From positions 2,208,001 to 2,272,000 of the forward strand of contig CBDBZU010000004.1 of assembly GCA_965213625.1 (NCBI GenBank): 64,000 bases of DNA, read 5' to 3'. Positions 3,753 to 5,416 of the stretch are shown piece after piece. The notes below the pieces were generated by a model. The model ran no database searches. It was not told where the DNA came from and saw nothing but the letters and a program-made list of their open reading frames with translations. The position numbers and the translations under genes were made by a program. The DNA comes from a bacterium (GTDB taxonomy: Bacteria > UBA8248). Each line of letters opens with the position of its first letter. The first letter of the stretch is position 1.

Positions 3753-3769
3753 GTTTAGCCACCCGCATT

Positions 3770-3794
3770 GTAGGGGTCGTATATATGCGACCCT
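3770..3794. repeat. GTAG-type REP-like palindrome
   Basis: GTAGGGGTCGTATATATGCGACCCT; hairpin GGGTCGTA/TGCGACCC. Confidence 0.55.
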
Positions 3795-3960
3795 CATAGA
3801 GAAGAGAAGGCCACGGGCATCGCAATCCTTCCTCCAGTGTCGCAGCGCGTTCTTATGAAATCGGCGAATGTCAGACAGCGGGCCGATGGGGTGGACGCCC
3901 CCTTCCGGCAGTTTAGAATGTGGCGAGGCAACGTCACACACCGCCCGGAAGGAGGCATCC

Positions 3961-4986
3961 ATGGAAGGAGTCTACATCATCGGCATCGACTTGGCGAAAA
4001 ACAGTTTTCAACTCCACGGGGCGCGCGCGGACGGTTCGGTAGCGTTCCGCAAGAAGCTCGGTCGGGCGGGTCTGCTGAACTTCCTGGCCAAACAGCCGCG
4101 CTGCGTGGTGGCGATGGAGGCGTGCGCGGGGGCGCACCGCTGGGGCCGTGAGATTGCGAAGCTCGGCCACGAGGTTCGGCTCGCGCCGCCGGCCTACGTG
4201 AAGCCGTACGTGAAGCGCCACAAGAACGACGCGGCGGACGCGGAGGCGATTTGCGAGGCGGCCTCACGACCGACGATGCATCTCGTGGCGGTGAAGAGCG
4301 AGGAGCAGCAGACCGAGGGGATGCTGTTCCGGGCGCGGGATTTGCTGAAGCGCCAGAAGACGCAGACGATCAACGCGTTGCGGGGACACCTGGCGGAGTT
4401 CGGGGTGGTCGCGCGGCAGGGTCCGGTGGGCCTCACGCGTCTGGCGGCGGCGGTTCGGGGAGCGGAATCGGGTCTGCCGGTGGCGGTTCGGGAGTTGGGC
4501 GAGGTGTTTCTGGAGCAAATCGCGGGTCTGAGCCGGAAGATCGGGGAGTTGGAGAGTCGGCTTCACGCGAGCGTCCACGCGGACGAGGAGGCGCGGCGTC
4601 TGATGCGTATCCCGGGGGTGGGTCCGGTTACGGCGTCTGCGATCCGTGCCTTCGCGCCGCCGATGGAGAACTTCCGGCGGGGCCGGGACTTCTCGGCCTG
4701 GCTGGGACTGGTGCCCCGGCAACACTCGACGGGGGGCAAGCCCCGCCTGGGCCGGGTATCGAAGATGGGCCAGCGCGACGTGAGGCGGCTGTTGGTCACG
4801 GGCGCGATGTCGGTGATTCGCCAGGCGCTCCGGCGCGGCGCGCCGCCGGGTTCGTGGCTGGCCCGGATGCTGGCGCGCAAGCCGAGGATGCTCGTCGCGG
4901 TGGCGCTGGCCAACAAAATGGCGCGCATCGCGTGGGCGCTGATGCGGAACAAGGACGACTACAGGGAACCGGCGCCCCTCGCCTGA
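3961..4986 (+). CDS. IS110-family DEDD recombinase/transposase
   Basis: GGAGG RBS; IGIDLAK, MEAC, KNDAADA (DEDD); IPGVG; PRQHSTGG (catalytic Ser loop); AVALANK. Confidence 0.97.
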   Translation: MEGVYIIGIDLAKNSFQLHGARADGSVAFRKKLGRAGLLNFLAKQPRCVVAMEACAGAHRWGREIAKLGHEVRLAPPAYVKPYVKRHKNDAADAEAICEAASRPTMHLVAVKSEEQQTEGMLFRARDLLKRQKTQTINALRGHLAEFGVVARQGPVGLTRLAAAVRGAESGLPVAVRELGEVFLEQIAGLSRKIGELESRLHASVHADEEARRLMRIPGVGPVTASAIRAFAPPMENFRRGRDFSAWLGLVPRQHSTGGKPRLGRVSKMGQRDVRRLLVTGAMSVIRQALRRGAPPGSWLARMLARKPRMLVAVALANKMARIAWALMRNKDDYREPAPLA

Positions 4987-5039
4987 GCGGCGGGCGCGCG
5001 GATAGAGCCGGGAGGAATGTGGGCAGGCCACAGGAGGAG

Positions 5040-5230
5040 TAAGGGCAAACGGTCATCGAGACGGGGTCGGGGCAACCAGTTACATGCGACGAGCGAACCA
5101 TCGAGCTCGCCGGGCCGATTCGGACCCGACCCGCGCATCTCCATACGGGCCCGCGGCCGTTACGAAGCGCCGCAACGAAGAGGCCGAATGTACGACTGAG
5201 TCGAACCGCTTTGCGCCGAACCCTCCCAAA
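5040..5230 (+). ncRNA. Putative bridge/seek RNA of the IS1111-type element (ends approximate)
   Basis: Stem GGGTCGGG (5064-71)/CCCGACCC (5125-32) encloses an internal loop whose two strands match the target flanks; a downstream part matches the circle junction. Confidence 0.8.
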
Positions 5231-5237
5231 AAACCGC

Positions 5238-5265
5238 TTGCATTCCAGGGGGGCGTCCATGTACG
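5238..5265 (+). promoter_or_regulatory. -35 half of the IS circle-junction promoter (TTGCAT-18-TACGAT after circularisation)
   Basis: TTGCAT at 5238-43. Joining right end ...GTA-CG to left end AT... yields TACGAT 18 bp downstream. Confidence 0.7.
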
Positions 5266-5272
5266 CATGTAT

Positions 5273-5416
5273 GTCAGACATATATGTCTGACCCTACACG
5301 AACATCGTGGTTTTACGGTGGCGGGCCCAGCCTGTAACCACGTCAGACATCACCAGGGAGAAGAAAGGGTAGGGACAGGTCGCGACCTCGGACAGGCACA
5401 AGGGCCTTGTCCCTAC
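5273..5416. repeat. Cluster of GTAGGG/CCCTAC REP-like palindromes
   Basis: Perfect 20-bp palindrome GTCAGACATATATGTCTGAC (5273-92) followed by CCTAC; GTAGGGACA (5369-77)/TGTCCCTAC (5408-16) IR with internal AGGTCGCGACCT. Confidence 0.65.

Follow-up and report, generated by a model that had tools for sequence, protein, structure and literature searches.

The window, by which we mean the whole 64,000-nucleotide stretch of bacterial DNA that was analysed, carries an intact 1,380-bp insertion sequence of the IS1111 group (positions 3886–5263 plus one CG), which occupies the site GGGC-CG-CATGTATG in the shoulder of a REP palindrome. Comparison with its relatives suggests that the non-coding region 3' of the transposase gene encodes a bridge RNA, or long seekRNA, of about 160 nt, which would fold as a three-way junction. 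Besides guides for the target, this RNA holds a strand (5188–5194) whose sequence follows that of the element's own right end and CG core from relative to relative. We think it likely that the explanation holds as a whole, that is, an IS1111 element with a bridge RNA, donor and target guides and a promoter at the circle junction; its parts differ in strength and are graded where they are discussed.

The element, its ends and its target

The 341-aa open reading frame is a DEDD transposase gene, matching Pfam PF01548 (2.3e-12) and PF02371 (5.5e-23), and its protein scores 316.5 bits against NCBIfam NF033542 ('IS110 family RNA-guided transposase'), for which the cut-off is 140. Its translation includes GLVPRQHSTG, an instance of the GL-P----S/TG motif of the C-terminal domain given for IS1111 transposases (Siddiquee et al. 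2024, PMC11187229). The remaining marks of the group are also present: a DEDD N-terminal (RuvC-like) domain together with PF02371, subterminal repeats within the 7–17 bp range, more non-coding sequence downstream of the stop codon (277 nt) than upstream of the start (75 nt), and site-specific insertion without target duplication, since five copies sit on one REP shoulder with a single CG in common. The subterminal inverted repeat is 11 bp long and leaves terminal extensions of 6 nt on the left and 4 nt on the right. To the IS621 chain the transposase shows distant similarity only (E 2.3e-08 over residues 211–330). The features of the element are as follows.

3884–3885, + strand: left copy of the CG core, the target-derived crossover dinucleotide (seen at both junctions of all five copies; 2-base ambiguity at the empty-site joint)
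3886–3891, + strand: left-end terminal extension ATGGGG, the right donor in circle-junction terms (first common bases after the core)
3892–3902, + strand: left subterminal inverted repeat TGGACGCCCCC, 11 bp, inverted relative to 5249–5259
3961–4986, + strand: transposase gene, 341 aa (PF01548, PF02371, NF033542, GLVPRQHSTG)
5249–5259, + strand: right subterminal inverted repeat GGGGGCGTCCA, inverted relative to 3892–3902
5260–5263, + strand: right-end terminal extension TGTA, whose last two bases with the core and the left-end AT give TACGAT
5264–5265, + strand: right copy of the CG core (five-copy comparison and empty-site contig)

We placed the ends by comparing the copies with one another and with uninterrupted sites. 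The element's own genome holds five copies at 100% identity, three of full length and two internally deleted. What these copies have in common begins at (C/A)GGGCCG-ATGGGG on the left and stops at CCATGTA-CGCATGTATG on the right; outside they diverge. The flank bases that they share, GGGCCG and CATGTATG, are the normal left shoulder of the REP palindrome GTCrGACATATATGTCyGAC, which occurs in 26 places at up to three substitutions, three of them adjoining copies of the element, and which gggcCGCATGTAT normally precedes. The shared flank bases therefore lie outside the element, and the uninterrupted target is GGGC-CG-CATGTATG, with one CG on each side of the insert. With its borders the element reads GGGC-CG-[ATGGGG...CCATGTA-CG]-CATGTATG, on which the five copies, the 26 REPs and an empty-site contig agree. 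That contig (1,469 nt, depth 13.1), from run X7 of a related organism, joins 3883 to 5264 and skips 1,380 bases; two letters at the joint fit either side, which is an empty site with a single CG. The ends, the junction and the CG core given in a preliminary description of this DNA are thus correct, as the five copies, the REPs and the run X7 joint all bear out. We are nearly certain that the ends, and with them the right-end guide described below, have been correctly assigned.

A duplicated ATGTCAGACA (3868–3878 and 5269–5279) was considered as an alternative pair of ends or as a 10-bp target duplication, and was rejected because it is absent at the other four copies and because the empty-site joint falls at the CG. 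It flanks the window copy alone and is probably a REP half-site left of the target rather than a target duplication. At least three different families of REP-like palindrome flank the element (3769–3798, 5272–5291 and 5369–5416), each recurring often in the genome, and the left flank of three of the copies carries an identical 42-bp unit beginning GTAGGGGTCGCATAAATGCGACCC.

The two deleted copies (G000:C4:592771-593820 and G000:C4:2342068-2343141; L005/L008 and L004/L007) share an identical in-frame deletion of 345 bp in the transposase gene, corresponding to about 4249–4593 of the window, with 7 bp of microhomology and 226 aa left. Both keep the two ends and the whole RNA region, so that they could be mobilised in trans. 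The same genome also holds a second IS1111 relative (G000:C4:927466-929080, here L006) with 76% nucleotide identity to the window element. L006 has a right-end extension (TACA) and guides of its own, and a different flank that is imperfectly matched (7/9). A further copy at 74–77% identity (L009/L010) is split by about 1.3 kb.

Fold of the non-coding region and target guides

Relatives were collected in a scan of one genome per species, which gave 544, the best 80 of which were retained. Together with the window and the second element of its own genome, these 80 loci made 82 rows for examination, 52 of which had the left-end motif and a matching inverted repeat. Alignment A2, drawn from these best 80 of 544 relatives, the window and the second own-genome element, consists of 43 distinct rows. 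Dropped from it were L021 (right-end duplication), L037 and L082 (aberrant non-coding region), L028, L070 and L075 (right end wrongly picked by the script), L034 and L048 (exact duplicates), and L053, whose guide block was misaligned and which, as originally aligned, is a row against the guide reading. The fold and the target guides that the alignment defines in the window are listed here.

5050–5208, + strand: predicted bridge RNA or long seekRNA, a three-way junction (43-row alignment)
5050–5056 with 5202–5208: P0, the closing helix
5064–5071 with 5125–5132: P1, in the target arm
5076–5077 with 5122–5123: P1b, in the target arm
5091–5093 with 5106–5108: P2, in the target arm
5148–5151 with 5182–5185: P3, in the third arm
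5153–5157 with 5169–5173: P4, in the third arm
5083–5089, + strand: right-target guide ACATGCG, complementary to the top strand of CG+CATGT
5111–5119, + strand: left-target guide CGGGCCG + AT (CGGGCCGAT), identical to the top strand of the left flank, the core and the first two left-end bases

Across the 43 rows, 92.9% of the cells assigned to helices are paired, against 23–45% when the partners are slid by 1–3 columns; 18 of the 29 pairs show changes on both sides, as compensatory change would produce, and no shuffle out of 500 reached any of five fold measures. The weakest helix is P0 (79.7% of cells paired, both-side changes in 5 of its 7 pairs), which RNAalifold missed and which was added by eye and then counted; in the window its lower part pairs in a shifted register. 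P3 is invariant and hence uninformative either way. Folding of the single sequence gave no signal (z of +0.80 for 4987–5265 and −0.03 for 5045–5215), and an Rfam scan at E up to 1 returned no matching family for the non-coding region, so the fold is derived from the present alignment. The target arm takes up about 70 nt and the whole junction about 160 nt, the added part holding the donor strands described below.

Both target guides sit in the internal loop of the target arm. Homologues of 5083–5089 match the reverse complement of the core plus right flank at no fewer than six of seven positions in 29 of 39 rows, and homologues of 5111–5119 are identical to the left flank, core and left-end start at eight or more of nine positions in 24 of 39. 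For each guide, none of 2,000 locus swaps reached the observed mean, and column 5116 shares 0.87 of 1.08 bits of mutual information (MI) with the core. In the RNA, 5083–5089 would pair with the top strand of the core and right target, and 5111–5117 with the bottom strand of the left target and core. The top-strand guide thus lies 5' of the bottom-strand guide, the same order as in the IS1111 seekRNAs, for which Siddiquee et al. (PMC11187229) report the top-strand match 5' of the bottom-strand match. Along the RNA this order is the reverse of that in IS621, while the IS621 rule (PMC11208158), bottom strand for the left half and top strand for the right, is retained.

Donor strands in the multiloop

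Two single strands of the multiloop are candidates for reading the donor, that is, the element's own ends.

5188–5195, + strand: left-donor guide ATGTACG(A), in the multiloop strand between P3 and P0
5139–5144, + strand: candidate right-donor guide CTCCAT, in the multiloop strand between P1 and P3

The motifs on which the preliminary description had built its donor reading, ATGTACGA at 5188–5195, CTCCAT at 5139–5144, ATGGGG at 3886–3891 and TTGCAT at 5238–5243, are all found at those positions. Taken by itself, the window gives them little weight: 82 of 2,000 dinucleotide-type shuffles of 4987–5243 (4%) contained an exact core-spanning junction match of 8 nt or more in either sense, and a 6-mer able to pair with ATGGGG, one wobble being allowed, turned up in 22%. 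It is the relatives, and not the window, that carry the finding.

Positions 5188–5194 are identical to the top strand of the right-end ATGTA plus the core CG. In A2 the homologous seven bases equal the last five right-end bases and the core in 39 of 42 rows, and the 7-mer matches in 41 of 43 when the core of either flank is accepted. Perfectly matched guide and right end occur in 12 distinct haplotypes, with versions that include TGTA-CG, TACA-CG, TATA-CG, TAGA-CG, CAGA-TG, AACA-TG and CAAA-AG. When identical haplotypes were collapsed to 15, guide and right end agreed at 101 of 105 positions, compared with a mean of 71.4 and a maximum of 89 after swapping, and none of 10,000 haplotype swaps reached the observed score. 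In an unbiased scan of the approximately 200 columns of A2, the top columns were 5189 for right-end position −4 and 5191 for −2, each with MI equal to the full entropy (1.46/1.46 and 1.22/1.22 bits), and 5193, along with 5116 at the value given above, for the core. The second element of the same genome, L006, illustrates the pattern: its right end is CCATACA-CG where the window has CCATGTA-CG, and it carries ATACACGA at the position of ATGTACGA, two matched changes. A distant clade with the inverted repeat ACCGCCCC (seven loci and L072) likewise combines TACACA-TG ends with ACACATG, and TATACA-TG ends with ATACATG.

We interpret 5188–5194 as a true donor-reading guide for the right end, which is as well supported as a comparison of sequences allows. 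Its RNA form, AUGUACG, would recognise the last five right-end bases and the core by pairing with their bottom strand. The preliminary description had proposed that a second loop recognises the donor, and that this independently supports the assignment of the ends. Donor reading is upheld by the tracking of right end and core and by its top-ranked MI, and the same tracking does lend the ends independent support, but there is no second internal loop: in the 43-row fold the donor segments are two single strands of the three-way-junction multiloop.

It had also equated all of 5188–5195 with the sequence spanning the circle junction. In the window all eight bases do agree, the last of them, A5195, being the A of the left end where the flank would have C. 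The agreement is not specific to the circle junction, though: among 40 rows, the homologue of A5195 is the base that opens the left end in 27, and 10 of the remaining 13 have the base of the right flank there. With the eighth base split across the family in this manner, the guide suits the circle as well as the integrated or inserted state, and position 5195 may act like the handshake guides of IS621. A different reading, which we consider possible but on balance unlikely, is that 5188–5194 reads the boundary between the integrated right end and its flank for excision, the likeness to the circle junction being incidental. Of the eight matching bases, seven (ATGTA+CG) exist in the circle and the integrated form alike, the division of the eighth base among the relatives suits such a boundary, and excision of IS1111 elements is reported to need correct flanks and the RNA (PMC11187229); the eighth base of the window, on the other hand, is that of the left end. 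The two roles are in any case compatible, because the loops of IS621 are described as serving insertion and excision alike (PMC13626964).

For the left end, CTCCAT occupies the strand where symmetry with the target loop predicts a guide for the left-end top strand, and it could pair with the top-strand ATGGGG, with a G-U at left-end position 5. The ATGG of the left-end extension is retained in 41 of 43 relatives, and CCAT and ATGG are both near-invariant, so that their agreement proves nothing. Only left-end positions 1–5 look paired, and positions 1–4 never vary. At position 5 the 43 rows comprise 22 Watson–Crick pairs, 15 wobbles and 6 mismatches. Telling versions are CGCCAT with ATGGCG (twice) and CACCAT with ATGGTG (once); CACCAT is also found with ATGGGG (three rows) and with ATGGGT (one row). 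Over 20 collapsed haplotypes, 34 of 10,000 swaps reached the count of paired rows and 501 the count of Watson–Crick pairs. Column 5140 ranks second for position 5 with an MI of 0.48 bits, which is background, since unrelated columns reach 0.39–0.50; position 6 shows no covariation with the candidate guide among the 43 rows of A2, and the core is not complementary to the two bases (AC) that follow CCAT. Of the complementarity that had been proposed between CTCCAT and the left end, the location and the ability to pair are therefore retained, but covariation does not back it beyond background at position 5 and is lacking at position 6. We lean modestly towards CTCCAT as the left-end donor guide, in which case CUCCAU (5139–5143/4) would probably pair with the top strand of the first five left-end bases. 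CCATCG at 5099–5104, the reverse complement of CG+ATGG, was examined as a better left-end guide that would include the core, and was rejected because it is retained neither in the 76% relative nor in the family alignment.

One of the rows dropped from A2 bears on the guide-coding DNA itself. Compared with L022, L021 (L021:2508-2890) contains a 70-bp tandem duplication bounded by the guide-coding DNA (ATATACG) and by the right end plus core (ATATACG), so two identical sites have recombined, by the recombinase or by slippage.

The predicted circle junction and related systems

With both sets of guides in place, the RNA and the DEDD/serine recombinase would align the donor and target cores, and strands would be exchanged at the CG. 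The donor in this scheme would be a circle in which the right end meets the left, and it is there that the preliminary description had placed a new promoter.

5238–5243, + strand: TTGCAT, the −35-like part of the proposed junction promoter (TTGC spacing in relatives)

On joining of the ends, TTGCAT from the right end would come to stand 18 nt (5244–5261) before TACGAT, composed of TA (5262–5263), CG and the AT of the left end. In 40 of 43 rows, TTGC precedes the junction hexamer at a distance of 17 nt (38 rows) or 18 nt (2 rows, one being the window), and CTTGC is near-invariant with variable neighbours. Once the ends are joined, 40 of 40 hexamers show A2 and T6; in the integrated state, where the right end is read on into its flank, 3 of 39 do. 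The integrated hexamer of the window, TACGCA, is without T6. The arrangement has a −35 in one end and, at a distance within 16–18 nt, a −10 completed by the other. TTGCAT-18-TACGAT agrees with 3 + 4 of 12 consensus positions, which is below the threshold of the promoter scan. What the scan picked out was another site, within the left end (3892–3919, described below), and this counts against the junction promoter. Junction promoters have been reported for ISEc11 and ISEc21 (PMC11187229) and for IS621 (PMC13626964). We regard TTGCAT/TACGAT as a plausible junction promoter, somewhat more probable than not to be one, and it would probably read into the transposase gene and on into the RNA. That the promoter is created only at the junction, and that excision switches on expression, are readings that the conserved TTGC spacing and the published junction promoters of relatives make reasonable.

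A less probable account, although not a negligible one, is that the matches in the window arose by chance and that TTGCAT/TACGAT is no promoter, TTGC being conserved for other reasons, for instance because the transposase contacts it beside the inverted repeat or because the RNA has its 3' end there. The shuffle frequencies of the window-only 8-mer and 6-mer fit this account, as do the 7 of 12 consensus positions that the promoter scan left unreported and the case of ISPpu9, a member of the IS110 family that forms circles without a junction promoter (PMC12288879). For the 8-mer, however, chance is excluded by the family haplotype and MI data, and in favour of the promoter stand the closely held TTGC spacing and the gain of A2 and T6 in the hexamer only on joining.

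A search of the contigs of runs X1, X5, X7 and X8 gave no joint that 'goes back' from one end of the element to the other; contigs drop rare forms, so the missing circle joint is uninformative. A junction word of 18, 22 or 26 nt likewise has 0 hits in the assembly.

The closest parallels among described elements are ISEc11, ISPa11 and ISKpn4 (PMC11187229), which are like the window element in having a transposase of about 340 aa, subterminal repeats with short extensions and long non-coding sequence after the gene, and in making no target duplication; ISPa11, moreover, is reported to target REPs as the window element does. According to Durrant et al. (PMC11208160), members of IS1111 carry the sequence of the bridge RNA in their right end, and 'many IS1111 orthologues' are predicted to have donor-binding nucleotides within a multiloop. 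The ISEc11 promoter Pjunc (Prosseda et al. 2006, via PMC13626964 and PMC11187229) is described as having its −35 in the right end and a −10 completed by the left on circling and as reading into the transposase gene, as predicted for the window; the window promoter differs in being predicted from its sequence, with a weak consensus match.

IS621 (Durrant et al. 2024, PMC11208160; Hiraizumi et al. 2024, PMC11208158) resembles the window element in having one RNA for target and donor, in reading left halves on the bottom strand and right halves on the top around a 2-nt core, in extra bases after the core, which in the window RNA recall handshake guides, and in a promoter rebuilt at the RE-LE junction, which for the window is a prediction. 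The window element differs from IS621 in that its RNA comes after the gene and not before it, its inverted repeats are long, its family has CG or TG as core where IS621 has CT, and its donor guides occupy the multiloop of a three-way junction where those of IS621 have an internal loop. Bridge RNA biology is already known from this work and that of Siddiquee et al. (2024), and the element is no new kind of system.

What the comparison adds concerns the long RNA of IS1111 elements. Siddiquee et al. leave the role of the 145–170-nt RNA open and define target matches only; the long RNA of the window adds a strand that covaries with the right-end extension and core. They also report that an 82-nt short seekRNA of ISEc11 with only target matches sufficed for transposition of a mini-IS (PMC11187229), so that donor reading by RNA may not be essential in every IS1111 element. 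With its short target arm and longer whole junction, the window element agrees with this account as well as with that of Durrant et al. Our literature search found no experimental test of donor reading in an IS1111 element. It is quite improbable, in our view, that the ends are instead recognised by the protein through the subterminal inverted repeats, the long RNA being dispensable and the identity of guide and right end being kept at the DNA level, for example with guide-coding DNA as an alternative end or through homogenisation by recombination: the sufficiency of the short ISEc11 RNA and the L021 duplication, whose exact boundaries indicate that the two DNA sites can recombine, are in keeping with it, but the guide segment lies between two covarying helices of a conserved fold, in an arrangement like that of the RNA's own target guides, the identity stops exactly at the variable extension and core with differing bases on either side, and twelve matched versions would need repeated homogenisation.

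Preferring a donor-reading RNA, we suggest donor reading as a function of the IS1111 long RNA, whose published experiments defined target matches only, and single out positions 5189–5193 and the 4-nt right-end extension. That natural variation alone, in twelve matched versions, reveals an IS1111 RNA tracking its own right end is a modest addition, and it comes with a precise placing of the ends, core and target, and with an RNA fold, for an RNA-guided transposon that had no annotation and is present in five genomic copies. More tentatively, and with the odds somewhat against it, the IS1111 long seekRNA could be a bispecific bridge RNA whose three-way-junction multiloop forms a donor site that is read unevenly, by a variable 7-nt strand for the right-end extension and core and by a near-fixed CCAU for the left end. 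The base after the core, switching between circle (27/40) and insertion product (10/13), could then set the balance of insertion and excision by clade, and the guide-coding DNA could act as a pseudo-end, as the L021 duplication may illustrate.

Two further observations concern the left end. The promoter scan reported a site within it, TGGACG-16-TAGAAT (9/12; 3892–3919), which points into the transposase gene and was found once against 0.1 expected from shuffles; its TAGAAT is shared only with L022, so this promoter-like site is not a feature of the family. Apart from the window and L022, which are without it, most relatives (L023–L099) conserve a hairpin-like GGCATCGC(A/G)ATGTGCC in the 5' untranslated part of the left end.
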